Made by a program: the position numbers and the translations under genes
Part shown: piece after piece, positions 21,143 through 59,167 of the stretch
Layout: each line of letters starts with the position of its first letter
How positions within the stretch are numbered: the stretch's first letter is position 1
Assembly: GCA_902826515.1 (NCBI GenBank)
Contig: CADEFD010000003.1
Coordinates: 968-64,967 of the forward strand
Source: an uncultured Acidobacteriota bacterium
Lineage (GTDB): Bacteria > Acidobacteriota > Vicinamibacteria > Vicinamibacterales > UBA2999
Direction of reading: 5' to 3'
Length of the DNA stretch: 64,000 bases
The notes under the pieces: model-generated
What the model was told of the DNA's origin: nothing
The model's database searches: none
Seen by the model: only the letters and a program-made list of their open reading frames with translations

Positions 21143-21150
21143 CTGAAGTC

Positions 21151-21185
21151 TCCTCCGTGAGTCCGGGCCGGCGTCCCTGCCGGCC
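21151..21185 (-). promoter_or_regulatory. Putative CsrA binding sites in the fliC 5' leader
   Basis: Leader RNA has hairpin GGCCGGC-AGGGAC-GCCGGCC (21166-21185) presenting GGA in its loop. It also has CACGGAGGA overlapping the Shine-Dalgarno (21151-21159). Confidence 0.5.
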
Positions 21186-21221
21186 GTGCGCGCGGGGCAT
21201 GTGACCCACGCGTCGGGGAGG

Positions 21222-28862: not shown

Positions 28863-29548
28863 ACATCCGGCTCTCCGCCACCCAGGTCTCGCGCGACCGC
28901 TGGCTCATCTCGTACGCGGACTTCATGACGCTGCTCTGCGCGTTTTTCATGACCGTCTACGCGGCCACCCTCGCCGAGACGCCGGCGGCCACGGCCGCCG
29001 CGCCCGTCGCCGCGGCCGCGCCGGCCGTCGAGACGGCGCCCGAGCCGCCGCCGGTCGATCCGTCAGTCGCGCTTCGCGAACAGGTGGAGCGGGCGCTGGC
29101 GCCGGAACTTGCCGCGGGATACCTGCAGCTCGTCGAGGATCCGCGCGGCCTCGTCATCGAAGTGCCCGAAGCCGGCGCGTTCGATGTGGGGCAGGCGGCG
29201 CTCGCGCCCGAGGCGCAGGCGATGCTCTCGCGCATCGCGACCATGCTCACGACGCTGCCGAACGCGGTGCGCATCGAAGGCCACTCCGACACGACGCCGA
29301 TCCGCACGCCGCAGTACGCGTCGAACTGGGATCTCTCGACCGCGCGCGCGACCAGCGTCGTCGAGTTCCTCGTGACCACGGCGGGCCTCGTGCCGTCGCG
29401 GCTGTCGGCCGCGGGCTACGCGGAGTTCAAGCCGCGCGCCTCGAACGACACGCCGGAGGGCCGGGCCCGCAACCGTCGCGTGGACCTCGTGCTGCTGAAC
29501 GACGCGACGGCACGCGCCGAGGAACCGGCAGGGAGCCTGCGGCCATGA
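28859..29548 (+). CDS. motB: MotB/PomB-family stator protein (set 1) with OmpA-like domain
   Basis: RWLISYADFMTLLCAFFM (conserved Asp in the TM helix). C-terminal OmpA motif (IEGHSDTTPIRT..NWDLSTARATSV...NRRVDLVLL). Confidence 0.9.
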   Translation: MNIRLSATQVSRDRWLISYADFMTLLCAFFMTVYAATLAETPAATAAAPVAAAAPAVETAPEPPPVDPSVALREQVERALAPELAAGYLQLVEDPRGLVIEVPEAGAFDVGQAALAPEAQAMLSRIATMLTTLPNAVRIEGHSDTTPIRTPQYASNWDLSTARATSVVEFLVTTAGLVPSRLSAAGYAEFKPRASNDTPEGRARNRRVDLVLLNDATARAEEPAGSLRP

Positions 29549-42438: not shown

Positions 42439-44049
42439 TCAGGCCGGCTGGCCGGACGACAGCACCCGGCGGATCTCGTCCGCCGTCACGGCGCCGGCGG
42501 AGAAGTCCATCCACTGCGCCAGGGTCTCGCGGGCGCCGGGAGAGGTGGGCTGCGCGAGGAGCTCGCGACGCCGGGACGTAAGGCCGTCGTGGGGCCGCGC
42601 CTGCGCGCGGGCCGACCGCAGGATGTCGCGGACGTGGCCGCCGAGGGGCGCGTGCGGCCCGAGGACGTCGTGGAGCGTGGCGTGTTCGAGGTTCGCGCCG
42701 TGCAGGATGCCGGCGCCGGTGGTGTTCACGTACCGCCGTGAGCTGTCGGCACTGACCTGCTGGCACAGCCAGTCGCGAAAGGAGATGAGGTGCGGTGAGG
42801 TGAGGACCGGCCGGCCGTGCAGGTCCGGCACGCGCAGATCGGCGAGGCGTCCGAAGTAGTCGTCGACCAGCTGCTCCCACGTGCAGCCGTAGGTCGCCAT
42901 CGCCTCCCGCCACGTCGCGTCGTAGATGGTGTTGGCGCAGTACGGGCGTCGCACCGGATACGACAGGTCGAGGCCGGCGAACACGATCGGCGCGCAGCCG
43001 AGACGCACCGCAAGATCGAAGGCCGTCGTGACCACCGACCCCCACGCGCGCAGCGTGCCGCGGTCGAGCCCGGCGGCGCGCAGCCACGGCCAGGGCTCGT
43101 GGTCGCTGACCTTGAACACGAAGGTGCGGCCGGCGAAGCCGGTGAACGCCGAGGGGTGCAGGCTGCCTTCGGCGGCCAGGAAGATACCGTCCAGATCGTC
43201 GACGCCGGCGAGATGGCGCGCGTTCAGCTCGGCCGGATCGACACCGGCGACGAGGTGGGGCCGTACGCCACCGGCCAGCAGTGGCCGCAGCGTCGTGTCG
43301 GCGCCGATGACGACGGCACGATCCTGGAGCGCCGCCAGCGCCGGCAGCTGGTCGTCGAGCGAGGGTCCGGCACCGACGATGACCGCCGGGTGACCCGCCA
43401 GCAGCCCGTCCAGTGCGGCCGCATCCCCTTCGCGCGCGATGACCGGAAGATTGGCCAGCGTCTGCAGGAGGTACCGTCCAGCGAAGCGCCGGCGCGCGTC
43501 CGCATTCGCCCGGGCCTCGGCGACCAGGCGGCCGGCCACGGCCTCGGCGGCCTTCGCGTCCGCGGCGCGACAGGCGGCCAGGGCGCCGTTCACGATCAGG
43601 GTCGGCGGCGCGCTCACATCGACGAGGCGTCCGCAGTTCATCGCTCCGCCGTAGTCGGGACCCGTGAGCAGACACAGGCGGCCGTTCGTGATCCACGACG
43701 TCAGGTCGCGTCGCGCGAGCAGCAGCGCCGCGATGCCGGGGTCCGGTTCGAGCAGCACGAGGCGCGTGGACGCGCCCGATCGTTCGAGGTCGTCGATGAA
43801 CTCGCCGAGGGCCGGCCCGATGACGAAGAGCTGGCGGGGCCAGGTGGCGATGCGGGGGGCGTTGAGCGACTGCCACTCTCCCGTGGGGTGCCGCAGTTCC
43901 AGGCGCACCCCGTCCGCGCCATCTGCCACGGCCCGGGTGTGCGCCTCGTCGAGGCGTGCCAGCCCGGGGCGTTGTCCCTGCGCGCGTTCGAGCGCGGCAA
44001 GATTGGCGGCAAGGGTCGTCTCACTGAACACGCCAGATCCGGACTGCAC
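42439..44049 (-). CDS. maf: Maf-family (DUF115/MptE-like) motility accessory factor, putative flagellin nonulosonic-acid transferase
   Basis: AVIVGAGPSLDDQLPAL..AVVIGADTTLRPLL...GSVVTTAFDLAVRLGCAPIVFAGLDLSY is a typical DUF115 core. It is the C-terminal third of the artefactual 1523-aa ORF 42439-47010. The start is uncertain (GTG 44049 or 44031). Confidence 0.65.
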   Translation of the reverse strand: MQSGSGVFSETTLAANLAALERAQGQRPGLARLDEAHTRAVADGADGVRLELRHPTGEWQSLNAPRIATWPRQLFVIGPALGEFIDDLERSGASTRLVLLEPDPGIAALLLARRDLTSWITNGRLCLLTGPDYGGAMNCGRLVDVSAPPTLIVNGALAACRAADAKAAEAVAGRLVAEARANADARRRFAGRYLLQTLANLPVIAREGDAAALDGLLAGHPAVIVGAGPSLDDQLPALAALQDRAVVIGADTTLRPLLAGGVRPHLVAGVDPAELNARHLAGVDDLDGIFLAAEGSLHPSAFTGFAGRTFVFKVSDHEPWPWLRAAGLDRGTLRAWGSVVTTAFDLAVRLGCAPIVFAGLDLSYPVRRPYCANTIYDATWREAMATYGCTWEQLVDDYFGRLADLRVPDLHGRPVLTSPHLISFRDWLCQQVSADSSRRYVNTTGAGILHGANLEHATLHDVLGPHAPLGGHVRDILRSARAQARPHDGLTSRRRELLAQPTSPGARETLAQWMDFSAGAVTADEIRRVLSSGQPA

Positions 44050-44171: not shown

Positions 44172-44187
44172 GGGCACGGCATTTGCG
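44172..44187 (+). promoter_or_regulatory. Candidate sigma-54 promoter upstream of motA (set 2)
   Basis: GGGCACGGCATTTGCG. GGCACG-N4-TTGC matches the consensus core with exact spacing. It lies ~90 nt upstream of the ATG. Confidence 0.4.
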
Positions 44188-44207
44188 ACAGGCCCCGGGG
44201 AAGCGGG

Positions 44208-44234
44208 TCAAGGAATCCGGCAGCGCGCCGATTG
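44208..44234 (+). promoter_or_regulatory. Sigma-28-type promoter upstream of motA (set 2)
   Basis: TCAAGGAA-N11-GCCGATTG. The -10 is identical to the flgM and HK promoters. It lies 44 nt upstream of the ATG. Confidence 0.45.
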
Positions 44235-44277
44235 CCCCAATGGTTCCGGACCGTCGTCCTGGCCAACACAACACGAC

Positions 44278-45150
44278 ATGTTCGTCATTATCGGCACGCT
44301 CATCGTCATCGGCTCGGTGCTTGGCGGCTACGTCATGCACCACGGCAAGATCGCGCTGCTCAACCAGCCGAACGAGTTCCTCATCATCTTCGGCGCCGCC
44401 GTCGGCCAGCTCCTCATCGGCACGCCGCTGCCGACGGTGATGAAGCTGCTCAAGCAGATGGGCGAGGTGATGAAGCCCGGGCTGGCCAAGAGCGACTACG
44501 CGGACCTGCTGGCGATGCTCTACCAGCTCTTCCGCCTGTCGCAGCAGACCGGCATCATGGCGCTCGAAGGCCACTTCGAGAACCCGAAGGACAGCTCGAT
44601 TCTCTCGAGGTATCCGAAGTTCCTGTCGCGCCACGAGTCGCTCGACTTCCTCTCCGATTCCATCAAGGTGATCATCGTCGGCGGCATGGCGCCGCACGAC
44701 CTCGACGCGCTGATGGATGAAGACCTCTACGTCCATCACCACGAGGCGAAGGCGCCGGCCGGCGCGCTGGCCAAGACCGCCGACGCGTTCCCCGGCCTCG
44801 GCATCGTCGCCGCCGTGCTCGGCGTCGTCATCACGATGCAGTCGATCGACGGCCCGCCGTCGGAAATCGGCGAGAAGGTCGGCGCCGCGCTCGTCGGCAC
44901 GTTCCTCGGCATTCTGCTCTCCTACGGCATCTTCGGGCCGCTCGCGACCATCATCGAGACCCGCGTGGACGACGAGGGCAACTACGAGAAGTGCATCAAG
45001 GCGGGCGTGCTCGCGACCTTCAAGGGGCTGCCGCCGGCGATTGCCATCGAGTTCGCGCGGCGCGTGCTGCCGCATCAGGTGCGGCCGAGCTTCGAAGAGA
45101 CGGAAAAGTTCTGCAAGGCCGCGGGCAAGCCCGAAGCGGCAGCGGCCTAA
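44278..45150 (+). CDS. motA: MotA stator protein (set 2, enterobacterial MotA-like)
   Basis: MFVIIGTLIVIGSVLGGYVMHHG...AFPGLGIVAAVLGVVITMQSI...ALVGTFLGILLSYGIFGPLATII. Internal ATG of ORF 42817-45150. Confidence 0.93.
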   Translation: MFVIIGTLIVIGSVLGGYVMHHGKIALLNQPNEFLIIFGAAVGQLLIGTPLPTVMKLLKQMGEVMKPGLAKSDYADLLAMLYQLFRLSQQTGIMALEGHFENPKDSSILSRYPKFLSRHESLDFLSDSIKVIIVGGMAPHDLDALMDEDLYVHHHEAKAPAGALAKTADAFPGLGIVAAVLGVVITMQSIDGPPSEIGEKVGAALVGTFLGILLSYGIFGPLATIIETRVDDEGNYEKCIKAGVLATFKGLPPAIAIEFARRVLPHQVRPSFEETEKFCKAAGKPEAAAA

Positions 45151-45153
45151 GTC

Positions 45154-46047
45154 ATGAAACCCACGCAGCCGGTCATCATCATCAAGAAGAACCGCGGCGG
45201 CCACGGCGGCCACCACGGCGGCGCCTGGAAGGTGGCCTACGCCGACTTCGTGACCGCCATGATGGCGTTCTTCCTCGTCATGTGGCTCGTCGGCGCCAGT
45301 CCCGACGTGAAGAAGTCGGTGGCCGGGTACTTCCGCGACCCGGGCGTGTTCGACTTCGAGAAATCCACCGGCATGATGGCCGGCGGCATGACCGGCATCG
45401 ACGAAGGCCGCGCGCCCGAGACGGTGCAGCAGCCCGATGCCGCGGCGCTCACCGTCGAACGCCAGAAGCTCGAAGAGTCGGCCTCGCGCATCAAGGACAG
45501 CCTGGCCGACGCCGGCGGCCTCGAGGAACTGCGCGACCAGATCGAGTTCTCGGTGACCGAGGAAGGTCTGCGCATCGAACTGCTCGAGAAGGACGCCTCG
45601 AGTTTCTTCGGCAGCGGCAGCGCCGCGCTGCGCGGCGAGAGCGTGCGCATCCTCGGCATCATCGGCCGCGAGCTGGGCCAGATGACCAACGACATCGTCG
45701 TCGAAGGGCACACCGACAGCCGGCCCTTCGGTGCCGGCCAGACCTACTCCAACTGGGAACTCTCGGCCGATCGCGCCAATGCCGCCCGGCGGGTGATGGA
45801 GGCCGTCGGCCTCAATCCCGGCCAGGTGCAGGGGGTGCGAGGGTTCGCCGCCACGCAGCTCCGCCTCGCCGAGGCGCCGATGGACCCGCGCAACCGGCGC
45901 GTGTCGATCGTGGTGCGCAGCCAGTCGCGCGCCCGCCTGGAAGACTCGCTGCGTCGCGGCACGGCGCCGGCCGCCGCCCCGCCGCCGCCCGAAACCACCA
46001 CGCCATCCGGGGTGTCCCCGGCGACCGCGCCGCCGCCGGCGCATTAA
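45154..46047 (+). CDS. motB: MotB stator protein (set 2) with OmpA-like domain
   Basis: GGAWKVAYADFVTAMMAFFLVMWLV (conserved Asp). VEGHTDSRPF...SNWELSADRANAARR...NRRVSIVV. Confidence 0.93.
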   Translation: MKPTQPVIIIKKNRGGHGGHHGGAWKVAYADFVTAMMAFFLVMWLVGASPDVKKSVAGYFRDPGVFDFEKSTGMMAGGMTGIDEGRAPETVQQPDAAALTVERQKLEESASRIKDSLADAGGLEELRDQIEFSVTEEGLRIELLEKDASSFFGSGSAALRGESVRILGIIGRELGQMTNDIVVEGHTDSRPFGAGQTYSNWELSADRANAARRVMEAVGLNPGQVQGVRGFAATQLRLAEAPMDPRNRRVSIVVRSQSRARLEDSLRRGTAPAAAPPPPETTTPSGVSPATAPPPAH

Positions 46048-46071
46048 AGCTTTGCCCCCGGAGGCCGATTG
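46045..46071 (+). promoter_or_regulatory. Sigma-28-type promoter overlapping the motB stop, upstream of the HK-DGC-PDE genes
   Basis: TAAAGCTT-N11-GCCGATTG versus TAAAGTTT-N11-GCCGATAA; this is the best match in the window. The TAA of motB forms part of the -35. It lies 80 nt upstream of ATG 46151. Confidence 0.6.
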
Positions 46072-46150
46072 GCCCACCGGGGAACAACCGCCGGCCATAC
46101 GGCCGGCAACGGCGGGCCTGCCCGCCGGTGCACGTTTCCGCGAGGTGCCG

Positions 46151-47716
46151 ATGTCAGCCGCGCAATCCGCCGCTCCCGTACCGTCCACGTCCGCTGCGCC
46201 GGGCGCGCCGTTCGCGGAGCCGGTGGCCGAACTGGTCGTGTCGCCGGATGGGCGCATTCTCGAATGTGGCGCCGCCGCCGCGCGCGTGCTCGGGCTGACC
46301 GACCCGCGCGAGGCGATGGGCGTCCACCTGAGCCTGTTCTGCCGCGATGCCGATCGCCTCGCCGAAGCCCTCGGCGCCGCCGCCGTGACCGGCCGACTCG
46401 AGCGCTGGGACGCGGATCTGGTGCGGCTCGACGGCAAGGCGCTCCCGGCCGTCGTCGATCTGGTGGCGTCCTTCGATGCGCCGCGCACGCTCACGTCGCT
46501 GCGGGTGGCGATCAAGCCCGTGACGGCCTGGCCCACGCCTGCGCCCGGCCCGGTGGCCGTGCCGGCGAAGCGTGACGAAGCGAGCCAGCTCTCGCACGAG
46601 CTGAACAACCTGCTGGCCATCATCAGCGGCCACGCCGAGTGCCTGATCACGCCCGGCGCCAGCGCGGCCGACGCCGGCGCCGTCGAGGCCATCCGGCGCG
46701 CCGTCGCCTCGGCCGCCCAGGTCTCGGCGCGCGTGCGCGGCCTCAGCCAGCGCCGCGCACAGGAAGCGCGGGCGGTCGACATCGACGCGCTGCTCGCCGC
46801 CGTGCAGGACGACCTGCGCCGCACCTTCGGACACCGTCTCGCCGTGGCCGTGCAGCCGGCGCCGCATCCGTGGACGGTGTCGATCGACCGCGCGGTCGTG
46901 CACCACGCGCTGGCGGCCCTTGCCGCCGAAGCCCTCGAGTCGATGCCGCACGGCGGCACCCTGACCTTCCGCACGATGAACGTCGAAGTAGGCACGCGCC
47001 GTCCGCACACCCCGGTCGGCGCCCGTCCCGGCCGCTACGTGCGCGTCGAAGTCAGCTACCTCACGAGCGACATGCCGGCGCCGCCCAACCAGCAGCGCCG
47101 CGATACCGACGACGCCGGCGTGGCGGCCATCGACGCCCTGCGTCGGGCCGGCGGCCGCGTGATGGTCGACACCGACGGTCACCGCGTGGCCAGTGTCGTG
47201 CTGCTGTTGCCGTCGGACGGGGTGACCGTGCTGCGTCCGCGCAGTGCCGAGACGCCGCGCCACTCGGGCCAGACCGTGGTGCTCGTCGAAGGCGACCCCA
47301 CCCATCGCCGGCTGCTGCAGGCGGTGCTGCGCGGGCAGGGCCACGACGTCGAAACCGTGAACACCGCCGAGGAGGCCGACCGCCTCGCGTCGCATCAGCC
47401 GGGCCTCGTGCTCGTGACCGACCGCCTGCCCGGCGCCTCGGCGACCGAGGCGGCTGCCTGGGTGGCGGCGCGCCCGTCGCTGCGCCTGCTCGGCACCTCC
47501 GATGACGTCGCGCGGGCGCTGGCGCTCGTGACCGACCCGCGCCAGGCGCTGGCGATCTCGCGGCCGCTCGCGGCCGGCCAGATCACCGACGCCGTGAAGG
47601 CCCTCTTCGACGGCGACGTCGCGCTCGACGCTGCCGATGCCGGCGCCGACGTGCTCGCACCGCTGTGGTTCAAGCGCGACGGCACGCAGCCGATTCACCC
47701 GCTGGAGGCGTCCTGA
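46151..47716 (+). CDS. PAS / HisKA / degenerate HATPase / receiver-like hybrid sensor kinase
   Basis: PAS (VVSPDGRILECGAAAARVLGL). H-box ASQLSHELNNLLAIISGHAECL. In the N-box position LAALAAEALESM lacks the usual Asn residues. C-terminal REC-like (VVLVEGD..LVLVTDRLPG..LLGTSD..ISRPL). Confidence 0.75.
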   Translation: MSAAQSAAPVPSTSAAPGAPFAEPVAELVVSPDGRILECGAAAARVLGLTDPREAMGVHLSLFCRDADRLAEALGAAAVTGRLERWDADLVRLDGKALPAVVDLVASFDAPRTLTSLRVAIKPVTAWPTPAPGPVAVPAKRDEASQLSHELNNLLAIISGHAECLITPGASAADAGAVEAIRRAVASAAQVSARVRGLSQRRAQEARAVDIDALLAAVQDDLRRTFGHRLAVAVQPAPHPWTVSIDRAVVHHALAALAAEALESMPHGGTLTFRTMNVEVGTRRPHTPVGARPGRYVRVEVSYLTSDMPAPPNQQRRDTDDAGVAAIDALRRAGGRVMVDTDGHRVASVVLLLPSDGVTVLRPRSAETPRHSGQTVVLVEGDPTHRRLLQAVLRGQGHDVETVNTAEEADRLASHQPGLVLVTDRLPGASATEAAAWVAARPSLRLLGTSDDVARALALVTDPRQALAISRPLAAGQITDAVKALFDGDVALDAADAGADVLAPLWFKRDGTQPIHPLEAS

Positions 47717-47752
47717 TACGACTGGCCCCGGCGGGCAGCGTGCGAAGGGTTC

Positions 47753-48829
47753 ATGGCGAATAACGCGGTCATCTCGCTCGACCTCAGGCGTCGCGGGCAC
47801 GAGAGCGACCATGCCATGGTCCTGCGCCTGCTCGACGAAGTGCTGGCCTGGGCCCGCGACTTCCTCGCCGCCGACGAAGAAGCCGGCTGGCAGCCGCTCG
47901 CGCAGCGCTTCGAGGCGTGCCGCACGGCCGTGGCCGCCGGCGCGCCGTCCACCGAAGTGGAAGCGCTCGCCAGCGCCTGTCTGGCCGAAGGACGCGAGCT
48001 CATCGCCCAGCTCCAGCAGCTGCGCACGCAGCGTGTCGAAGAGTCGTTCGCGGTGGTCGAGGCGCTGCGCGACGTGATGGCGACGATGGGTGCCGAGATG
48101 AGCACCATGCACACCAGCCTCACGCAGTCCACTGAACGGTTCGAGGCGATCGGCCAGTTGAACGACGCACGCCAGATGAAGGCGCGCCTGATGGCCGAAG
48201 TGCTCACGCTGAAGCAGGTCGCCGCCAAGCGGCGCAAGGCGTGGGAGGAAACCGCGCGCTCGCTCACGCAGAAGGTCGCCGCCCTCGAGAAGGACCTGTC
48301 GGCCGTGAAGGGCGAAGCTTCCACCGACTCGCTGACCGGCGTGGCCAACCGCCGCGGCTTCGACGAGACCCTCGAGCGCTGGCTCGGGCCGTCGCACCCG
48401 GGCTTCGTGCTCGCCGTGCTCGACATCGACGACTTCAAGGGCATCAACGACGCGCACGGCCACGCCGTGGGCGACGACGTGCTCCGCTACGTGGCGAAGT
48501 GCCTGATGCAGTCGTTCCGCAGCGACGACCTGGTGGCGCGCGTGGGCGGCGACGAGTTCGCCGTGCTGGCCGCCGGCCTCACCTCGCGCCAGGCGGAACA
48601 CCGGCTGCACGGCGTGCTCGCCCGCATCGCCAACGGCAAACCCGGCGAGGAGGGGCGTCCGCCCTGCGTGCCCACGATCAGCGTCGGCCTGTCCGAATGT
48701 GCCGCCGGCGACACCGCCGCCAGTCTCTACGAACGCGCGGACGACGCGCAGTACACCGCAAAACGGCAAGGAAAGAATCGTGTGATCGCCAAGGACGCCC
48801 GGCTCCTGCGCGACCTCGCGAGGCATTGA
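47753..48829 (+). CDS. GGDEF diguanylate cyclase with N-terminal coiled-coil sensor region
   Basis: DSLTGVANRRGF...AVLDIDDFKGINDAHGHAVGDDVL...RSDD-LVARV-GGDEF (I-site plus active site). Confidence 0.9.
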   Translation: MANNAVISLDLRRRGHESDHAMVLRLLDEVLAWARDFLAADEEAGWQPLAQRFEACRTAVAAGAPSTEVEALASACLAEGRELIAQLQQLRTQRVEESFAVVEALRDVMATMGAEMSTMHTSLTQSTERFEAIGQLNDARQMKARLMAEVLTLKQVAAKRRKAWEETARSLTQKVAALEKDLSAVKGEASTDSLTGVANRRGFDETLERWLGPSHPGFVLAVLDIDDFKGINDAHGHAVGDDVLRYVAKCLMQSFRSDDLVARVGGDEFAVLAAGLTSRQAEHRLHGVLARIANGKPGEEGRPPCVPTISVGLSECAAGDTAASLYERADDAQYTAKRQGKNRVIAKDARLLRDLARH

Positions 48830-48837
48830 GGCACGAC

Positions 48838-49875
48838 ATGCGCGATACCGGGGCTCGCCGCGTTCTCATCGTCGACGATTCGCCCGCGTTCACTGACGCA
48901 CTGAAGCGACTGCTGACAGCCGAAGGCTTCGTGGCCGACGTGCTGCACGACAGCGAGGGCGTGATCGGCGCCGTGGCGCAGTTTGCGCCCGACGTCGTGC
49001 TGCTCGACGTCGATCTGCCGGGCGCGAGCGGCTTCGAAGTGTGCCGCCGCCTGAAACGCTTCGAAGCGACGCGGCTCATTCCGGTGGTGCTGCTCACCGG
49101 CCTCGTCGGCCGCGAACATCGCCTGGCCGGCATCGAAGCGGGCGCCGACGACTTCCTGACCAAACCCTTCGATTCTTCGGAGCTCACCGCGCGCGTGCGG
49201 TCGCTCTCGCGCCTCAAGCGGTACACCGACGAACTCGAATCCGCCGAGTCGGTCATCGTCAGCCTGGCGCTCACCGTGGAGGCGCGCGACGCCTACACGG
49301 AAGGCCACTGCGACCGCCTGTCGACCTATGCCGTGGCCCTCGGCCGCGCCATCGGCCTTTCGGCCGACGACCTGTGGGCGCTGCGCAAGGGCGGCCTGCT
49401 GCACGACGTGGGCAAGGTGGGCATCCCCGACGCCATCCTGCTGAAGCAGGGCCGGCTCACGGCCGAGGAATACGAGATCGTGAAGTCGCACACCGTGATC
49501 GGCGAGCGGCTCTGTTCCGGCCTGCGCTCGCTGGCCTCGGTGCGGCCGATCATCCGTCAGCACCACGAGCGCCTGAACGGCACCGGTTACCCGGACGGAC
49601 TGAAGGGCAGCGAGGTGTCGCTGCTGGCGCAGATCATCGGCGTGGTGGACGCCTTCGACGCGATGACGACCGACCGCCCGTACCGCAAGTCGCTCGGCAT
49701 CGAGCGCGCCTTCGAGGAACTGCGCGGCGACGTGGCGAAGGGGGCGATGGACGCGACGCTCGTCGAGCGCTTCATCGAACTCGCGCCCGGCATCTTCGCG
49801 TCCACGCCGCCGAGCGCGGGCTGGGATGCGGCCCGCGTCGAGCGCGCCGCTGAACTCTCGCCGGCGACGGCCTAG
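48838..49875 (+). CDS. Response regulator with HD-GYP c-di-GMP phosphodiesterase domain (RpfG-like)
   Basis: REC: VLIVDDSP, VVLLDVDLPG, VVLLTG, LTKPF. HD-GYP: EGHCDRLS, LLHDVGKVGIPD, RQHHERLNGTGYPDGL. Confidence 0.92.
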   Translation: MRDTGARRVLIVDDSPAFTDALKRLLTAEGFVADVLHDSEGVIGAVAQFAPDVVLLDVDLPGASGFEVCRRLKRFEATRLIPVVLLTGLVGREHRLAGIEAGADDFLTKPFDSSELTARVRSLSRLKRYTDELESAESVIVSLALTVEARDAYTEGHCDRLSTYAVALGRAIGLSADDLWALRKGGLLHDVGKVGIPDAILLKQGRLTAEEYEIVKSHTVIGERLCSGLRSLASVRPIIRQHHERLNGTGYPDGLKGSEVSLLAQIIGVVDAFDAMTTDRPYRKSLGIERAFEELRGDVAKGAMDATLVERFIELAPGIFASTPPSAGWDAARVERAAELSPATA

Positions 49876-51925: not shown

Positions 51926-52193
51926 GTGCGCCTCCCGACAGGACACGGCTATCGCGTCTACCAAGCTAGCACGGCGATGTTGGAGGGACACCGGGAAATC
52001 ATAGTGTGCCACAGCTTGCCCCTGAGCTGGCGGGGGGACGCCTCGGGACGGCGCGGCGCCGCCCTCGAGCTGCCGCGGCAGCTCCCGTCGCCTCGCGCTC
52101 GGCGGGCGCCCGCCCAACGCGAGGCCGGTGGCCGGTTGGGGCAGAAACGGCGGGCTGGCCATCAATCTCGGCGCCGGAAGCCGCCGCGACAGC

Positions 52194-53441
52194 TCAAGGG
52201 CGGCTGTGGTCGGCTGATGCCGCTTCGTGTGGGGCTACAGCGGCCTGGTCTGTCGAAAGGGACACAGTGTCGTCGATCCATTTGCTGAGTCTGGAGCGAA
52301 CTTCCGGCAGTTCGTGCACGAAATGGTACATGTCAAGGCGCGCACCGCGATACCGGTCGATTCGGACATTTAGTAGCGGGCCCTCCCAACCAGATGGAGT
52401 TGAATCGACGTGGACGTCGTTCATGAAGAACACAAGTGGCGAGGCGGAGCCGAAGGCCAATGTTTGCAGAATCGCGCTCGGGAACAATGTGAGGCTCGCT
52501 CCAAAGAGGGACATCGCTATGCCCGCGGTCACGACGGTCGGTAGCCACAGCGCCGGGTGGAGAGCCGGGAAGTCCGGAGCGCCGAAGCGGGGCGCAAGAG
52601 GCGCTAACAGTCCCAGGCAGTAGGTTGCCAATAGGAGCCTTGGCGGCAGCCGTTCCATGGGCAGGAATAGAGTCCGGTGGGCTAGGCCCAGGGCCGTCGC
52701 GCTGGCACGTGCGGCCAGCTGAGCCACTGACAGGACTAGGGTCGCCTCATCCCCGGTCGCTCTGACCACGAACAACCGCGAACCGACAGGGGCAAAGTGG
52801 GAGGGGAGCCGCCATCGGCGTAAGCGTCTGTCGATCGACCGAATGCGTGTATGCAAGGTCAGAATCCACAAGCCTGCAGCGAGGGAACCCACGCCGATTC
52901 CCCAACTGAGCACTTGAAGCAGCGGGAAGCCCGGGTTGAACCAGGCGACGAGTGCGGCCCCGGCTGTTGTCGTGGGCCAGAAGATCACCGGGTACAACCG
53001 GACGGCTCGTTGAAGGGCGCTACCGGAGGCTCCGCGGAATAGCAGAAACGGTGTAGCTAGCGCTGCGATCCCGGCGACCGCGGTGCGATCGTCGGGCGGC
53101 ATTGTTGCGAGAGCACGGAGAACGACGTTTCCGCCATGACTATGGGCAATGACTAGATGCACGCCGTGCGGATTCCGTTGTCGCTCACGAGCAAAGTGAC
53201 CTCTGAACTCAACGGCTGCGTGTTCTCGCGCCTGGATGCTATTCGAGCCGCTCCACGGAAACTGCACAAACCGAATTTGAGCTCCGGACGACGCAAGGAT
53301 CGCTTCTCTGAACTTGCTGCCCTTCTCGAACCACTGTGGTGCCGTACCACGCCGGCGCCGAACGCGACCCAGTATGCCGCCTGGCCACGTGCCGTGCACC
53401 AGGTGAATCGTTGTGAGTAGCCCGCTGTTCGGCATTGTCAC
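52194..53441 (-). CDS. Alpha/beta-hydrolase-like domain fused to a polytopic membrane domain
   Basis: TIHLVHGTW...FPWSGSNS...HLVIAHSHGGNVVLRAL (GxSxG-type nucleophile elbow AHSHG). At least 4 predicted TM helices in the C-terminal half. Confidence 0.55.
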   Translation of the reverse strand: MTMPNSGLLTTIHLVHGTWPGGILGRVRRRRGTAPQWFEKGSKFREAILASSGAQIRFVQFPWSGSNSIQAREHAAVEFRGHFARERQRNPHGVHLVIAHSHGGNVVLRALATMPPDDRTAVAGIAALATPFLLFRGASGSALQRAVRLYPVIFWPTTTAGAALVAWFNPGFPLLQVLSWGIGVGSLAAGLWILTLHTRIRSIDRRLRRWRLPSHFAPVGSRLFVVRATGDEATLVLSVAQLAARASATALGLAHRTLFLPMERLPPRLLLATYCLGLLAPLAPRFGAPDFPALHPALWLPTVVTAGIAMSLFGASLTLFPSAILQTLAFGSASPLVFFMNDVHVDSTPSGWEGPLLNVRIDRYRGARLDMYHFVHELPEVRSRLSKWIDDTVSLSTDQAAVAPHEAASADHSRP

Positions 53442-53442
53442 C

Positions 53443-54132
53443 CTACTGTGTCGGCTTTGAAATCCGGAGGACCTGCTGCAATTCGCCCACCCACTCGGCG
53501 AAGCGAAGCAGCATCGAATCTGGAACGTCGCTCGCGGATTGAAGAGCCGCGCGTGGGGAGCAACTCCCGGCGGCGTAGGAAAGTACGTGCAGGTACTCGC
53601 GGGCTGCGTTTAAGTACATGAGACTCGGCAGCATCACGTCCGATTCGAACGGCTCTAAGTACGATCGATGGGTCTTGTCGACGAGCGCAAGCATTCGCAT
53701 TTCGTACCCAGCCAGTGAGCGCCTGTTTGACTCGATCTCGACCCTCTCAGTCTCGAGCTGTCGGCCGAGGGCTTCAATTTCGGCTCGTCGGGCTTCGAGC
53801 GAGGGTCGTTCACGTTCCAGAGTCCGACGGTAGCCCTCTGCGGAACGGAGCAAGGCCGCTACGGACGTGTCGGGGCTCTTGCATGATGAAACCGCCCGAA
53901 GTGCGTTTGGAAGGTCTCGTAATTCAATCTGCTGGCGCTCCGCGACTATGGGCGCCCAGTTCCGCTGAACACGGTCTCGGCCGCGCTGCAGTGCCGCCCA
54001 CTCGTCCGAGAGGGAGCGCTGCTGAGAGGTCGCCGATACCTGGCAGAGCAGCAGAAGGGGCGCGACCGACCAGCGGAACCGGCGAAGACGGTTGGCAGTG
54101 GCGATGCTGCGCCCAGAAGGGGGAGTGCGCAT
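53443..54132 (-). CDS. Hypothetical signal/TM-anchored coiled-coil protein
   Basis: N-terminal hydrophobic WSVAPLLLLCQVSA. Central heptad-like RRTLERERPSLEARRAEIEALGRQLETERVEIESNRR. The stop is 1 nt before the next gene's start. Confidence 0.45.
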   Translation of the reverse strand: MRTPPSGRSIATANRLRRFRWSVAPLLLLCQVSATSQQRSLSDEWAALQRGRDRVQRNWAPIVAERQQIELRDLPNALRAVSSCKSPDTSVAALLRSAEGYRRTLERERPSLEARRAEIEALGRQLETERVEIESNRRSLAGYEMRMLALVDKTHRSYLEPFESDVMLPSLMYLNAAREYLHVLSYAAGSCSPRAALQSASDVPDSMLLRFAEWVGELQQVLRISKPTQ

Positions 54133-54619
54133 CGAGTAACCTCGCTGCCGCTGCCGGAAGGGGGCGGAGCGGCGTGGCGAAGACCTTAGCTCTAGTGAGT
54201 CCCGCCGTCAAACTCGACACATAAGCGATCGGCGCGATGGGCTCCCTTGAGGATGCGCGTTGCCGAGCCGTTGCTCGCGGCAGCTTGAGCCCTCGGCCCT
54301 ACGAGCCCCGCTCAAGGCGTGCCAACGTCACCTGTCCCAATCCGCGTCGTACGGCCGTCGATTGAAGCGGTCCCAGTCGAGAGGTGGTCCAGGTCTCGCG
54401 CGGGGCCGGACCAGAGCACCTCGAGCGCTACGTGGGCCGGCGGAACGGTTTCGCAACCGGGCCACCACCGCCGGGACGATGCAGTCGGTACAACCTCGCC
54501 TGATCGCCGTGTTCGTGCGCCAGGGCTGCCTGTGCACGTCCCGGGCGGCCCCGGACGGGAATCCCTATTCGATGCTGCTGTCCAGGCGCTCACGTGGCGC
54601 AACTGACGTGCAGCGCTGG

Positions 54620-55030
54620 CCTGCCGGGAGTTGGTATCTCTGCAATAAAGGCCACCGACAGCGGCAGCAGCGCCAGCGCATGAAGGCGGGGAAGGACTGG
54701 CGGGAGGGCGGCTTCGTGTTCACGGTGACGCGCCGCGCCGTCGGCCGCCAGCTGGCTACGCCGCTCCACCCGCGAAACGTCCTGAGGACGCTCCACGAGC
54801 TACTGAGGGCCGCGGACCTGCCGCGAGTCCGGTTCCACGACCTGCGCCACAGCGCGGCATCGCACCGCTGCTGGCGTCGGGCGTGCAGCTCGCCGAGGTC
54901 TCAAAGTTGCTGGGACACGCTGAGCTGCGTCTCACGTCAGACGTTTACGGCCACCTGCAACGCGAGACCGCAGCCCGGGCGGCCGAGCGGATGGACGTGA
55001 TGCTCGGATCAAGGGCTACGCAGGCGATCG
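54620..55030 (+). pseudogene. Tyrosine recombinase (phage integrase family) remnant, 5'-truncated and frameshifted
   Basis: One frame reads HRQRQQRQRMKAGKDWREGGFVFT...LPRVRFHDLRHSAAS. It continues in another frame as LLASGVQLAEVSKLLGHAELRLTSDVYGHL (HxxR ... LGH ... Y catalytic box split near 54868). Confidence 0.7.
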
Positions 55031-55039
55031 GGCGGCCAG

Positions 55040-55873
55040 TTGCTGCTACGCTTGCGCAGACCCCTACTGGCGGAGGCTCGAATGTCGTTTGCTTTTGGCG
55101 TACCTGTGCGGGACCGTTGGCGCGCCCGGTCGATGACGCTGGTGCAGTGGCTTACGCGGCCGGGCATGCGGCTTGGTGATCCCGTGTGTGAGTTGGATGT
55201 AGATGGAGTCCGGCAAACGCTCTCGATGCCGTCACGGCTCATGCTCCCGGGCGATCTCGCGGATCCGCTCTGGCATTACGTTGCAGAAGGCGGCGAGGTC
55301 GGTCCTTGGGGGACGCTCCTAGAGGCCACGTCGTCGTATTCCTCGCCCGGTCCGCGTAGATTCCACGCTTCGACTCGGAGGCCTCTCCAACGCCGCGCCA
55401 GGTATCCCAGGATCTTCATCAACTACCGCCGGTCCGACAGTGAGGTGTGGGCCGGACGAATACACCAGGCCTTGGCCGCGGCATTCGGTGACGACGAAGT
55501 GTTCTTAGCTGAGTTCAGCATCGTGCCAGGCGAGGACTTCGCATAGACAATTCAGCAGGCGGTCGCCCACGCTCACGTGGTTGTAGGGGTGGTGGGACCT
55601 GCTTGGACGCAGGTCAGGGACGAGAAGGAGCAAAGGCGCATTGACAAGTGGAATGACTTCGTCGCGTTGGAGTTGACGGCTGCGTGGGATCTGGGCAAGC
55701 AGATCATCCCGATCCTAGTTCCAAACACTCCGCAGGACGTATTCTCGAGCGACTTGCGTGAACCGCTGGGCCAACTAGCCGAGCTTCAGTGGCTTGAGGT
55801 GTCGGGACGTTACTGGAGTCAGTCAATCGAAGCCCTCCTCGCCGCTGTTCGATCGGGGCTTGAGCGCGGCTGA
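55040..55873 (+). pseudogene. TIR-domain protein interrupted by a single in-frame TAG (55544-55546)
   Basis: YPRIFINYRRSDSEVWAGRIHQALAAAFGDDEVFLAEFSIVPGEDFA*TIQQAVAHAHVVVGVVGPAW...GKQIIPILV fits the bacterial TIR_2 pattern. ORFs 55040-55546 and 55577-55873 share one frame. The true start is uncertain. Confidence 0.6.
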
Positions 55874-55891
55874 ACGAACCGGCACCGGACT

Positions 55892-56665
55892 TCAAGGCTC
55901 AGGCTTCGGGTTGAGGATCGTCAAGCCCGGTGTGGGCGAGCGCGGCCAACTGTGGCCTGTGCTTTCCATGGATCCGGGTCCCATCTCCAGCAATTCACGC
56001 GTCGTGATTTGCTGCTCCAACTCGACGACCTGAACGACCTCGTTGTCTGCCTGCTTAAGCGTGGCGTCGCCAAGCGGCACGAAGTGCGTGTACATTGTCG
56101 AGCGGTCGTCGAGCGCCTTCACGATGACCCACATGAGCACCCGGCGTTCCGTCGTAGATGCCGGCTCGCCGAGGGCAACTCGCCAAGCCTTCTTCATGTC
56201 GAAGTCGATCGTTAGTTCAATTGGTGCTGCGCGGCCACCCGCCACCACGATCGGGCCGGTGGCAGGGCCGCGCCCTGGCTCCGCTGGCAGGAACTGCTTC
56301 GGGTATTGCCCGCTGTCCGGGGATACGAAGATGAGCTCAGGCGCCAGAACAATGACGTCTCGATTTCCAAGGTTTTGTGCGACCATCCGCACCGTGAGTC
56401 CCGCTTCGGTGGGCCGCAGTTCGGCCATCGTGATCGTGGCCCTACGCGAAATAGACAGGTACTCGCTGTAGTAGGTGACGCTAGAGACGATCAGGGCCGA
56501 CCACGCCACTGCGGTCGTCCACGGCAGTTCTCTGAGTCTTAGCAACCACTTGCGTAGACCTGTCGCCTCGCGGCCTATCGCTACTGCCGCCGACGTGGCG
56601 TCCTCAGGCTGCACCGCTTCGGATTCGGGTGGACTCGGACGGCGGTCTCGCTGTCGTCTTCTCAT
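55892..56665 (-). CDS. Hypothetical single-pass membrane protein
   Basis: 257-aa ORF with TM segment WTTAVAWSALIVSSVTYY followed by a beta-rich region. No recognised motif. Confidence 0.4.
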   Translation of the reverse strand: MRRRQRDRRPSPPESEAVQPEDATSAAVAIGREATGLRKWLLRLRELPWTTAVAWSALIVSSVTYYSEYLSISRRATITMAELRPTEAGLTVRMVAQNLGNRDVIVLAPELIFVSPDSGQYPKQFLPAEPGRGPATGPIVVAGGRAAPIELTIDFDMKKAWRVALGEPASTTERRVLMWVIVKALDDRSTMYTHFVPLGDATLKQADNEVVQVVELEQQITTRELLEMGPGSMESTGHSWPRSPTPGLTILNPKPEP

Positions 56666-56744
56666 CCCCTGAGGGTGTCAGATTGGGTGTAGAAAAACCG
56701 CTGGAGGGTGCGGAGCGCCGCCAAAACTCAAAAAGCCTGAAATC

Positions 56745-56820
56745 TGGAGCCGGCGATAGGACTTGAACCTACGACCTGCTGATTACGAATCAGCTGCTCT
56801 ACCAACTGAGCTACGCCGGC
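56745..56820 (-). tRNA. tRNA-Thr (anticodon CGU), CCA encoded
   Basis: Minus strand reads GCCGGCGTAGCTCAGTTGGTAGAGCAGCTGATTCGTAATCAGCAGGTCGTAGGTTCAAGTCCTATCGCCGGCTCCA. It folds by hand into a cloverleaf with a 7-bp acceptor stem, anticodon loop TTCGTAA and T-loop TTCAAGT. Confidence 0.93.
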
Positions 56821-56920: not shown

Positions 56921-58747
56921 TCAGGAGGCCTGGACGGCCGTGTCTGACCCGCGGCGGCGCCGTGCGGAGCCCGGGGCGTTGCCGGCCCACCAGTCGGTGC
57001 CGGCCGTGGCGTCCAGTTCGAGCAGGCGCAGCAGGTCGTCGGCCGGGACGGCGCGGGAGAACAGGAAGCCCTGGCCCAGCGGGCAGCGGAGCTTCTTGAG
57101 CGCCTGCAGTTCGGACGGCGTCTCGATGCCCTCGGCCACGACCTCGATGCCGAGGATGGCCGCCAGTTCGATGGCGTACTGCACGATGGCGGCGCTGCCG
57201 CCGTGCTGCGGGTTGCCGCCGAGGTAGCTGCGGTCGATCTTCAGCGTGTGCACGCCGAGCGCGCGGATGTGTTCGGTGGCGGCGAGCCCCAGGCCGAAGT
57301 CGTCGAGCGCCACCTTGAACTCGGCGTCGCGCAGGGCCTGCGACACCTGCACGGCGCGGTCGAAGTTGGCCATTGCGTCCAGTTCGGCGATCTCGAGTTC
57401 CAGATCCCCCGGCTCCACCCCCGCGTCGCGCACGGCGGCCGTGAGGCGGCCCACGAGGTCTGGCGCGAGCAGCTGCGAGCTCGACAGGTTCACCGAGATG
57501 CGCATCGCCTGTGCCGGCGGATGCCCGCTACGCCACTGCGCCAGCGACCGGCACGCGTTGGTGATCGTCTGCCAGCCGAAGGGCACGAGGCGGCCGGCCT
57601 GCTCGAGCAGCGGCACGAAGATGTTCGGGCGCAGCAGGCCGCGTATCGGGTGACGCCAGCGCAGCAGCGCCTCGGCCCGCACGATCGATCCGTCGCCGAG
57701 GTGTACGGTGGGCTGGAACCACATCTCGAACTGGCCGTCGCGCATGGCCGCTTCGAGGTCGGAGGCGAACTCCATGAACTCCGACGGCGCGGCGCGGGCC
57801 GAGTCGTCGAAGAGCTGCGTTTCGGCCGGGCCGCGGGCCTTGGCGCGCACGAGCGCGGAGTAGGCGTCGCGCAGCAGGTCGTCCACCGAATCGTGACCGG
57901 CGCTGTTCATCGCGATGCCGACGCAGGCCGACGCGAACAGGCGATGTCCGGCGATCGGGAATGCGGCGGCGAGCGCGTCGTGCAGGCGCGCGGCCACGCG
58001 CAGCGCGTCGCGGGCGTCGATGAGATTCGAGATGACGAGCGCGCACTCGTCGCCGCCGAGCGGCGGCAGCGCCACGTCGCCGGCCATGGCCTGCGTGTCG
58101 TGCACGCCGATGCGGGCCACGAGATCCCCTTCGCGCAGACAGCGCGCCAGCCGGCGCAGCGCCTCGCGCAGCAGCACGTCGCCGCCGTCGTGGCCGAGCA
58201 GCTCGTTGAGCGCGCCGAAGCGATCGAGGTCCACGAGCAGCAGCGCGAAGCGCGAGGCCGGTGTGTCGCGCGCCGCTGCCACCAGGCGGTCGACGTGAGC
58301 ACGCAGGGCGAAGAGGCCCGGCAGGCCGGCGAGCGTATCGGTGCGGTTGCGCTCCTGCACGTCGGCGAGGGTGCCGGCCAGACGCACGGCGCGGCCGCTG
58401 GCGTCGCGGTCGGCCACCCCTTCGGCCACCACCCATCGGAAGGCGCCGCCGTGCGCGCGCAGGCGATGTTCGCAGCGGAAGGCCGGCGCCGCCCCGCTCA
58501 GGTGGCGGTCGAGCGCGTGCATGACCGACGCGACATCGTCGGGGTGCACGCGGCCGAGCCAGGCGTGGAGGGATTCGGTGGTGTTGCCCTTGGCGTCGCC
58601 GAGCAGGGCATGCCACGCCGCGGAGTAGGCGACGCGGTCGGACGTGACCGTCCATTCCCACGTCGCGCTCGTCGGCGCGTCAGGCATCCCGGAAGGGAAA
58701 GGTGTGCCAGCCACAGGGTGGAGCGATGGTAGCCCCGCGGCGCTCAC
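56921..58747 (-). CDS. PAS / degenerate GGDEF / EAL protein
   Basis: PAS (HPDDVASVMHALDRHLSG..FRCEHRLRAHGGAFRWV). The GGDEF region is split: REGD-LVARI-G[VHDTQAMAGDVALPPLG]GDEC. EAL motifs EALLRW, NLS, EIAE, DDFGLG, KID, EGIE, QG are present. Confidence 0.88.
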   Translation of the reverse strand: MSAAGLPSLHPVAGTPFPSGMPDAPTSATWEWTVTSDRVAYSAAWHALLGDAKGNTTESLHAWLGRVHPDDVASVMHALDRHLSGAAPAFRCEHRLRAHGGAFRWVVAEGVADRDASGRAVRLAGTLADVQERNRTDTLAGLPGLFALRAHVDRLVAAARDTPASRFALLLVDLDRFGALNELLGHDGGDVLLREALRRLARCLREGDLVARIGVHDTQAMAGDVALPPLGGDECALVISNLIDARDALRVAARLHDALAAAFPIAGHRLFASACVGIAMNSAGHDSVDDLLRDAYSALVRAKARGPAETQLFDDSARAAPSEFMEFASDLEAAMRDGQFEMWFQPTVHLGDGSIVRAEALLRWRHPIRGLLRPNIFVPLLEQAGRLVPFGWQTITNACRSLAQWRSGHPPAQAMRISVNLSSSQLLAPDLVGRLTAAVRDAGVEPGDLELEIAELDAMANFDRAVQVSQALRDAEFKVALDDFGLGLAATEHIRALGVHTLKIDRSYLGGNPQHGGSAAIVQYAIELAAILGIEVVAEGIETPSELQALKKLRCPLGQGFLFSRAVPADDLLRLLELDATAGTDWWAGNAPGSARRRRGSDTAVQAS

Positions 58748-58774
58748 AGGCCAAGAGGGAAGCTGCGCGGATTC

Positions 58775-59167
58775 TTACGAGGGGAGCAGCTTTTCGACGC
58801 TTTCGACCAGGTGCTCGACATCCACCGGCTTGGCTTCGAAGGCATCGCAGCCCACGCGCATGGCCAGGTTGCGCGAGTCGGTCTGCGTATTCTCGGAGAG
58901 CGCCACCACGAGGATGTGACGTGTCACCGGGTCGGCCTTGAGCCGCCGCGCGGACTCCCAGCCCTCGAGGGCGGGGGGATCCATGTCCATCAGAATGACG
59001 TCCGGCTTGTCGGTCCGGACACTTTCGAGCGCCTCGCGCCCGGAACGCGCCGTGCGCGCCCGGAACCCCCGGGCGAGCAGCGTCCGCACCATGGCCTGGC
59101 GCAGCGCGTCCTGATCGTTGACGACGAGGACGCTCCGTCCGGCGGTCGTTGATGCCATTGGATTCAT
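58775..59167 (-). CDS. Single-domain response regulator receiver (CheY-like)
   Basis: VLVVNDQD, VILMDMDPP, VVALSE, EAKPV. An ATG at 59158 is an alternative start. Confidence 0.85.
   Translation of the reverse strand: MNPMASTTAGRSVLVVNDQDALRQAMVRTLLARGFRARTARSGREALESVRTDKPDVILMDMDPPALEGWESARRLKADPVTRHILVVALSENTQTDSRNLAMRVGCDAFEAKPVDVEHLVESVEKLLPS

Follow-up and report, generated by a model that had tools for sequence, protein, structure and literature searches.

A three-gene c-di-GMP module joined to the motAB stator genes, with three conserved sigma-28-type promoter motifs, in an uncultured Vicinamibacterales bacterium

The subject of this work is a set of five genes in a 64,000 nucleotide (nt) stretch of DNA, referred to here as the window (contig CADEFD010000003.1 of assembly GCA_902826515.1; G+C content about 72%), from an uncultured soil bacterium of the Vicinamibacterales (Acidobacteriota). 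All five are co-directional on the forward strand, in the order motA, motB, a gene for a protein resembling a hybrid sensor kinase, a gene for a GGDEF diguanylate cyclase and a gene for a phosphodiesterase composed of a receiver and an HD-GYP domain (REC-HD-GYP). The reading that we hold to be probable from the sequence data is that they are a late set dependent on the sigma-28 factor FliA, in which the main stator operon motAB is extended by a three-gene cyclic diguanylate (c-di-GMP) module that includes a putative pseudokinase, the whole being served by three nested promoters (P1, P2 and P3).

Genes were called with a codon-score model trained on clear open reading frames (ORFs) and were annotated by Pfam and NCBIfam. 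The features that carry the argument are listed with their window coordinates; protein lengths are in amino acids (aa), and N11 in the motifs is the distance between octamers.

4392-5129 (+): fliA, sigma-28 factor; NCBIfam NF005413 238 bits (cut-off 201), TIGR02479 FliA_WhiG 235 bits (cut-off 190), Pfam sigma-70 regions r2, r3 and r4
13253-13279 (+): motif before flgM from the window scan, TAATGGAG-N11-GCCGATTG
21248-21222 (-): motif before flagellin from the window scan, TAAAGCTC-N11-TCCGATTA
44208-44234 (+): P1, TCAAGGAA-N11-GCCGATTG, 10/11 core matches, ending 44 nt before the motA ATG
44278-45150 (+): motA, stator channel, 290 aa; Pfam MotA_N 1.6e-25 and MotA_ExbB, NCBIfam TIGR03818 MotA1 351 bits (cut-off 304)
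45154-46047 (+): motB, peptidoglycan anchor, 297 aa; Pfam MotB_plug 7e-17 and OmpA, best NCBIfam match MotB at 232 bits, below its cut-off of 277
46045-46071 (+): P2, TAAAGCTT-N11-GCCGATTG, 11/11, the sole perfect match in the window, overlapping the motB stop
46079-46150 (+): predicted 5' leader of the kinase-like gene, about 72 nt, between P2 and the ATG
46151-47716 (+): kinase-like gene, 521 aa; PAS, dimerisation and histidine phosphotransfer (DHp) domain with His149, degenerate catalytic ATP-binding (CA)-like domain, REC-like domain with Asp424
47670-47696 (+): P3, TCAAGCGC-N11-GCCGATTC, 10/11, within the last 16 codons of the kinase-like gene and ending about 57-59 nt before the GGDEF ATG
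47753-48829 (+): GGDEF diguanylate cyclase gene, 358 aa; Pfam GGDEF 3.5e-36, 124.8 bits (cut-off 23.8)
48838-49875 (+): REC-HD-GYP phosphodiesterase gene, 345 aa; Pfam Response_reg 4.8e-26 (91.6 bits), HD_5 3.1e-33 (115 bits)

An initial annotation of the window had placed five co-directional genes here, and the Pfam matches for motA, motB, the GGDEF gene and the REC-HD-GYP gene are strong. The stator proteins have the domains of their families, MotA_N and MotA_ExbB in MotA, and in MotB the plug, an OmpA-like domain and a AYADFVTAMMAFFL / YADF segment resembling the conserved Asp-containing MotB motif, whose Asp we take, by comparison with E. coli MotB, to be the conserved one. On the plus strand the gaps between the five genes held no terminator-like site; the region has four such matches (2.6 expected), all of them inside genes and three on the minus strand. 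No sigma-70-type promoter was found in the region, and there is no evidence for an operon break anywhere among the five genes.

A scan of the window for TAAAG-N13-15-GCCGAT accepted sites that agreed with the core at 10 or all 11 positions and with the -10 box at 5 or all 6. Five matches were found where 0.8 are expected, all with 14 nt between the core boxes and all 46-109 nt upstream of same-strand starts, which are those of flgM, motA, the kinase-like gene, the GGDEF gene and flagellin. P2, which the initial annotation had singled out as the best sigma-28 match and as making use of the motB stop, is the only exact TAAAG-N13-16-GCCGAT on either strand of the 64 kb, where the expectation from shuffles is 0.02, and the TAA of motB (46045-46047) does form part of its -35 box. 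The string CATTAAAGCT is common to P2 and the flagellin site. P1, P2 and P3 share the layout of the sigma-28 class (TAAAGTTT-N11-GCCGATAA, with a TAAA(G) -35 box and a GCCGATAA-like -10 box). Flagellin, flgM and motAB are classic class III FliA-dependent genes (PMC4183435, PMC13432727); in this genome the motif precedes flagellin, flgM and motA, and fliA is present, its product being the presumed reader of P1-P3. The motifs before motA and before the GGDEF gene had not been noticed in the initial annotation, and they would strengthen the late-class reading.

A scan anchored on MotA through 185,579 species genomes gave 27 loci, of which the closest (96-81% MotA identity) belong to metagenome-assembled genomes (MAGs) labelled Acidobacteriota or Vicinamibacterales; the window proteins were compared with all 27 by tblastn. 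The five-gene order, followed by the same two minus-strand genes, is kept in 12 of the 13 loci with sufficient flanking sequence and a MotA of 81% identity or more. A search from the kinase-like protein returned 48 orthologues and, beyond them, true hybrid kinases at 26-29% identity. The deeper group P0045-48 has a kinase-like protein 42% identical and without PAS domain, and in L028-L030 the 42%-identical protein (X) still stands in the order motA-motB-X-GGDEF-REC-HD-GYP (in L031 the sequence is short and covers motA-motB-X only). The same five-gene order is found in L035 and in a JGI contig. Conservation of the neighbourhood in relatives, which the initial annotation had named as a check on its proposal, is thereby seen, and together with the sigma-28-type motifs it argues for its view of the c-di-GMP genes as a probable late-class set attached to a stator. 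Frameshifts in the kinase-like and/or GGDEF genes of L006 and L009 may be long-read assembly errors or pseudogenes.

Conservation extends to the motifs. At the same threshold, 14 related Vicinamibacterales loci (267 kb, both strands) gave 41 matches, 39 of them at P1, P2 or P3; P1 and P2 are each present in 14/14 loci and P3 in 11/14. An alignment anchored at the -10 box shows T-AAG and GCCGATT almost unchanged and the 14-nt spacer variable, an information-content profile with conserved boxes and diverged spacer as expected of sigma-28 promoters. P1 and P2 are also kept in the deeper lineage L028, and P2 and P3 in L035; L032 has an equivalent motif before flgM. The gap between motB and the next gene in L028 is 2 nt, yet TGAAG-N14-GCCGATTC is retained across the motB stop, inside the annotated start. 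Within the P3 -10 box Ile is encoded by ATT, which is kept in 14 of 15 sequences, while in the window genes ATT accounts for 47 of the 517 Ile codons (9%) against 468 ATC; retention of this rare codon argues for selection on the DNA itself. Upstream of the motA motif, by about 40-60 nt, eight of the relatives (L001-L003, L006, L008, L009, L018 and L026) carry a (C/G)GATTATAGG or GGAATTATAGG element, missing at the equivalent position of the window, which may be a second promoter or an operator.

Both enzymes of the module appear intact, and the GGDEF motif, its RxxD inhibitory site (I-site) and the HHERLNGTGYP motif reported in the initial annotation were all recovered in the translations. The cyclase reads RSDD (aa 256-259)-LVARV-GGDEF (aa 265-269), with the I-site exactly five residues before GGDEF, and has the DIDDFK/INDxxGH region; RxxD-N5-GGDEF is conserved in 15/15 intact orthologues. 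It is predicted to be active, from the intact GGDEF, and product-inhibited, from the I-site. Its N-terminal 190 aa are helical and family-specific: a search of 5.8 billion proteins matched orthologues only, and the region otherwise gave low-scoring coiled-coil matches. The HD-GYP gene begins 8 nt after the GGDEF stop and encodes the most conserved protein of the module (82-96% identity), of the RpfG type, with LLHDVGK and HHERLNGTGYP (aa 242-252). HHERL(N/D)GxGYP is present in all 14 orthologues checked and LLHDVGK in 13 (L028 was not matched by the pattern used). The receiver has the canonical DD, D and K, with the Thr of LLTG at the expected T/S position. Activity is predicted for the phosphodiesterase, with phosphorylation of the receiver as its switch.

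The protein encoded between the stator and these enzymes is of a different kind. Its ATG (46151) is preceded by a GAGG Shine-Dalgarno sequence, and GAGGT and the ATG are invariant in the relatives compared, with the bases between them nearly so. The initial annotation called it a PAS-HisKA hybrid kinase, of which the layout stands (PAS-like, DHp with His149, REC-like) and the kinase probably does not. Every Pfam and NCBIfam score is far below cut-off, those of PAS, HisKA and REC falling under their gathering thresholds (HisKA 22.4 bits, cut-off 26.9; REC 17.9, cut-off 30.2). HATPase_c gave no match in this protein even at E<=10 (the relative P0050 scores 82 bits), and precomputed annotation shows HATPase_c in 0/48 orthologues. 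The boxes were read from alignments with bona fide hybrid kinases and with 14 orthologues. The H-box SHELNN is kept, in the HExxN pattern of HisKA proteins, and His149 is invariant in 51 aligned sequences. The N-box has LAALAAEALESMPHGG where kinases have LMNLAVNARDAMPEGG, with Glu, Asp or Gln in every member at the position of the Asn for Mg-ATP; G1 reads VSYLTSDM instead of DxGxGM, the F box is deleted, and G2 is lost together with a further four residues. The N, G1, F and G2 boxes of a Bergerat domain are thus lost in all 15 orthologues. In the C-terminal receiver-like domain Asp424 and Thr449 are kept, with E-G-D for DD and Arg471 for Lys.

The AlphaFold model (mean predicted local distance difference test score 73.6) has a histidine kinase-like fold, with PAS at 26-123, DHp at 143-203, an alpha/beta CA-like domain at 211-359 and REC at 375-487, and a short disordered loop where the ATP lid is expected. 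Its best matches in the PDB are PAS-kinases, and they include non-kinase relatives (plant phytochrome output modules, DivL 4q20) and the c-di-GMP-regulated ShkA. Single-sequence PDB matches of the CA-like region are weak (KinB, E=0.035), and the orthologue P0045 has a weak match, below threshold, to the ChpT-type HPTransfase family (E=0.038). From these sequence features the protein is probably a pseudokinase acting as histidine phosphotransferase or phosphatase, and we infer that it would carry or remove phosphate through its His and Asp rather than take it from ATP. The proposal of the initial annotation, an active PAS hybrid histidine kinase that phosphorylates the REC-HD-GYP protein in the manner of RpfC/RpfG, would account for the order PAS-DHp-CA-like-REC, for the conserved His149 and Asp424, for a fold matching sensor kinases and for the canonical REC-HD-GYP gene next door; with every ATP-binding box replaced or lost in every orthologue and no HATPase_c match, it is unlikely. 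In EnvZ the N347D substitution gives a kinase-negative, phosphatase-positive protein, which also speaks against an active kinase here. The last eight residues, PIHPLEAS (47690-47713, +), are nearly invariant among orthologues and the preceding 40 or so vary; the codons for these eight overlap the P3 -10 box and the presumed start-site region, so that constraint on DNA and constraint on peptide are not fully separable there.

Several points weigh against the reading of a late set with three promoters and a pseudokinase. P3 is missing from lineage L028 and falls below the score threshold in 3 of the 14 loci; its boxes lie in coding sequence with a conserved peptide (F/L-K ... PIHPLEAS), so that codon choice alone separates selection on DNA from selection on protein. 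The -35 box of P2 is partly constrained as the stop of motB (TAA or TGA). In E. coli no transcript is detected from many FliA sites, above all from those inside genes (PMC4183435). The HD-GYP gene is missing from L009 and L018, which keep the kinase-like and GGDEF genes; in L034 the kinase-like gene stands beside genes for NeuB and a CMP-sugar transferase, and motAB, the GGDEF gene and the motif are all absent. These variants indicate that the module is not indivisible. A Glu or Asp at the N-box position could in principle still coordinate Mg-ATP, and loss of kinase activity is accordingly a prediction. A further protein discussed below, of the MshEN type, is linked to the module by co-occurrence in the flagellar cluster alone, and the host is known from MAGs alone.

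Some of these points would fit an arrangement in which P1 is the one working promoter and the module is simply the far end of a motAB operon. P2 and P3 would then be FliA sites from which nothing is transcribed, or matches due to chance. The short gaps without terminators, the silence of most intragenic FliA sites in E. coli and the absence of P3 in L028 all agree with it. What makes it decidedly unlikely is that P2 is the best match in the window and is kept, with variable spacers, in all 14 loci and in two deeper lineages, that the motif persists even where the gap between motB and the kinase-like gene is 2 nt, and that P3 retains its rare ATT codon. Were it correct, the module would still be sigma-28-dependent, through P1.

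That the module is instead a general c-di-GMP unit without motility role (for matrix or adhesion, for example), its motif being read by another factor, is very unlikely, since the few facts in its favour (the kinase-like gene of L034 away from motAB, the lack of HD-GYP genes in L009 and L018, and motAB loci of Gemmatimonadota without the module) are met by the same motif before flagellin, flgM and motA, by synteny down to 42% identity of the kinase-like protein, by the flagellin-glycosylation-type genes that surround even the L034 copy, and by an independent linkage of HD-GYP and motA in L017 and L019. In those two loci, which belong to a more distant Acidobacteriota lineage (L017, 6039-11035; L019, 2319-5000; MotA about 63% identical), a sigma-28-type motif is followed by a REC-like-HD-GYP gene directly before motA-motB, and to judge from these sequences the linkage arose or persisted there in another arrangement. 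The L017 gene lies between a motCD-like pair and motAB and encodes HE for HD, without the HHE motif. The module is missing from the motAB loci of Gemmatimonadota and other distant lineages (L020-L025 and L027), and no sigma-28 motif was matched in those of them that were scanned (L020, L022 and L023).

For the late FliA-dependent set the following course of events is proposed. Completion of the hook-basal body would lead to export of FlgM, freeing FliA, and P1-P3 would fire with the flagellin and flgM promoters. As no terminator was detected between the genes, production of the stators, once FliA is released, would be accompanied by that of the cyclase, limited by its I-site, and of the HD-GYP phosphodiesterase, switched by phosphorylation; since the promoters are nested the two enzymes would receive most transcription, the summed output of P1-P3. 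The PAS pseudokinase may gate phosphorylation of the HD-GYP receiver in a ChpT/DivL-like way, the phosphate being supplied by a kinase whose gene lies at another locus. The outcome would be a make-and-break pulse, or a set-point, of c-di-GMP tied to completion of the motor, with the MshEN-type protein of the basal-body operon as possible reader. The sequences themselves show the gene content, the positions, enrichment and conservation of the motifs and the state of the catalytic residues, whereas FliA dependence, timing, enzyme activities, phosphotransfer partners and output are all inferred in this scheme. Given the canonical FlgM/FliA checkpoint, it is reasonable to expect that completed flagella would feed back on local c-di-GMP.

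The candidate reader is encoded as follows.

7391-8245 (+): stand-alone MshEN-type protein of about 283-284 aa with a predicted c-di-GMP-binding domain, between fliM/fliN and flgF

An MshEN-like protein at this position had been suggested by the initial annotation as a possible output, and the protein is real by several measures. It passes NCBIfam NF053729 (MshE-related c-di-GMP motif; 52 bits, cut-off 38), matches PilF 6f8l (8e-15) and MshE 5HTL (5e-6) in the PDB with both RLGxxL...Q motifs aligned, and contains tandem 24-residue motifs (RLGALLRHQGAVHPEQLTAALEAQ-TESRL-RLGEQLRSMGAVDPQALLRALAEQ) with a 5-residue spacer, in agreement with RLGxx(L)(L)xxG(hh)xxxxLxxxLxxQ. Pfam T2SSE_N gave no match in it; many homologues carry precomputed PF05157. 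The N-terminus is rich in Cys and His. Members of its family are about 283 aa long, and their place in the flagellar operon, after fliN and before flgF, is kept at 45% identity (L032, 6001-6846). A literature search combining MshEN and flagellar terms found no precedent for an MshEN protein in a flagellar operon. By its motifs and position the protein is a plausible candidate for a non-PilZ flagellar c-di-GMP effector that reads the output of the module. A more ambitious version of the proposal, a self-contained and hitherto undescribed circuit timed by the checkpoint in which nested FliA promoters, stator, cyclase, HD-GYP protein and pseudokinase phosphotransferase act with an MshEN effector of a new class in place of the PilZ brake (YcgR) and with a three-way-junction leader RNA as extra control, is speculative and in our opinion unlikely.

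The leader in question is that of the kinase-like gene. An outer helix, GGGGAAC/GUUCCC, just before the Shine-Dalgarno sequence, encloses two GC-rich hairpins whose sequences change among relatives yet stay paired. MAFFT and RNAalifold on all 14 leaders recovered the outer helix only, the hairpin lengths being different; a subset of 8 sequences was therefore used, which gave 21 pairs, 7 of them with compensatory changes. The share of paired cells is 91.6%, compared with 84% for shuffles and 25-51% for slid registers. Single-sequence stability (z = -1.4) is not significant in DNA of 72% GC, so that the structure is supported by covariation only. Rfam families such as the c-di-GMP-I/II riboswitches gave no match in 46072-46150 even at E<=10, and at gathering thresholds the whole window gave a tRNA only. 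Because of this and because conservation is poor at the unpaired positions, a 5' structure with a stabilising or protein-binding role is favoured over a riboswitch. GGGGAAC was also considered as a CsrA site and set aside, since it pairs with GUUCCC.

The remainder of the flagellar gene cluster is large and starts with flhB, flhA and flhF, followed by fliA. Its other features are these.

Between fliA and flgF: fliM, fliN and a small ORF, then the MshEN-type gene (7391-8245, +)
After the 7391-8245 gene: flgF/G/A/H/I and an M23 peptidase gene
13331-13633 (+): flgM, anti-sigma-28; Pfam FlgM 1.2e-7
After flgM: flgK/L, fliW and csrA, the last two within 16252-16951 (+)
Minus strand: fliS, fliD and flagellin, the latter at 20345-21142 by Pfam Flagellin_N and Flagellin_C
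21.3-42.3 kb: sugar-modification island, which holds a second stator pair
28032-29548 (+): second stator pair, MotC/MotD-like by NCBIfam, embedded in this flagellin-glycosylation island
42439-44031 (-): MptE-like (Maf-type) gene, adjoining the five-gene set

No sigma-28 motif was found upstream of the second stator pair (28032); GCCGATTG occurs at 27387 without a -35 box. The host probably has two stator systems, with the c-di-GMP module on the MotAB set only. The flagellin leader (21143-21221, -) has AGGGA and ACGGAGGA motifs around the Shine-Dalgarno sequence, consistent with control of flagellin translation by FliW-CsrA, of the kind known from Bacillus and Campylobacter. A PAS-GGDEF-EAL gene (588 aa) lies behind a single-domain receiver gene at 56921-59158 (-), some 7 kb away from the module, and the distant locus L028 also has a PAS-GGDEF-EAL gene downstream of its module. 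The stretch from about 52000 to 56700, beside a tRNA (56748-56820, -), has a G+C content of 63-67% and ORFs with weak phage-integrase/TIR matches or none, and is probably the remnant of an integrated element.

What is understood of flagellar control by c-di-GMP comes largely from Proteobacteria and Firmicutes, whose late class contains a phosphodiesterase and PilZ brakes. If the reading given here is true, a major and mostly uncultured soil phylum wires both synthesis and degradation of c-di-GMP into its stator operon under the FlgM/FliA checkpoint, offers a natural case of a pseudokinase inside a c-di-GMP module, and points to an MshEN-type protein as possible flagellar effector. With three short promoters and three soluble proteins, the system would be a compact one for the question of how motor completion reaches second-messenger levels. 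For annotation of Vicinamibacterales MAGs two rules follow: the sigma-28 consensus T(A/C)AAG-N14-GCCGATT may be used, and the label histidine kinase should be avoided for the kinase-like protein.

Among known systems, Xanthomonas RpfC/RpfG, reportedly a hybrid kinase with a REC-HD-GYP protein that forms complexes with GGDEF proteins according to the work of Ryan and Dow, is alike in that a REC-HD-GYP protein is encoded beside a hybrid-kinase-like protein with a GGDEF protein as likely partner. RpfC is a bona fide kinase with intact HATPase_c, whereas the window protein is without the ATP-binding boxes; to our knowledge the Rpf system senses diffusible signal factor (DSF) and is part of neither a stator operon nor the FliA regulon. 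Closer to the window protein are Caulobacter ChpT and DivL, proteins of histidine kinase fold in which a DHp domain and a degenerate CA domain serve phosphotransfer or regulation without autophosphorylation, and DivL (4q20) is among the structural matches of the model. There is no significant sequence relationship to either, the window protein has additional PAS-like and degenerate receiver domains, and it keeps the His for which DivL has Tyr. The 7391 protein shares the tandem RLGxxLxxxGxxxxxxLxxxLxxQ motifs and the 5-residue spacer with V. cholerae MshE (5HTL), T. thermophilus PilF and E. coli NfrB. The MshEN domains known so far form the N-terminal part of larger proteins, which are pilus or secretion ATPases or glycosyltransferases, whereas that of the window is a stand-alone protein encoded between fliN and flgF.

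For the regulatory arrangement the nearest likeness is class III of E. coli and Salmonella, where genes for c-di-GMP turnover and effectors are under FliA together with stators and a promoter may be embedded in the preceding gene: pdeH (yhjH) and ycgR of E. coli are FliA-driven, and an intragenic FliA promoter in flhC drives motAB-cheAW (PMC4183435). In E. coli the late-class enzyme is an EAL phosphodiesterase that stands alone, encoded at a locus of its own, and yhjH and ycgR are the only FliA-driven c-di-GMP genes named in that source as consulted here (PMC4183435), no cyclase being among them. In the window, by contrast, GGDEF, HD-GYP and predicted pseudokinase genes are joined to the motAB operon with three nested putative promoters, the host is an Acidobacterium and the candidate effector is of MshEN rather than PilZ type. 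Pseudomonas resembles the window in having two stator sets (MotAB/MotCD) and coupling between stators and c-di-GMP (SadC, FlgZ); in P. aeruginosa stators stimulate c-di-GMP production (10.1101/483339), and in P. putida FliA controls the gene of a c-di-GMP effector, flgZ, and, partly, that of a phosphodiesterase, bifA (PMC6093933, PMC5300878). In Pseudomonas the genes for the cyclase and the phosphodiesterase lie at other loci and it is the proteins that are coupled, whereas in the window the linkage is genetic and putatively transcriptional. In V. cholerae the status of flagellar assembly feeds into c-di-GMP signalling (PMC7098655). FliA-controlled c-di-GMP genes are therefore already known as a concept; new here are the phylum, the physical joining of cyclase, HD-GYP and putative pseudokinase genes to motAB, the triple nested sigma-28-type promoters and the pairing with an MshEN protein of the flagellar operon.

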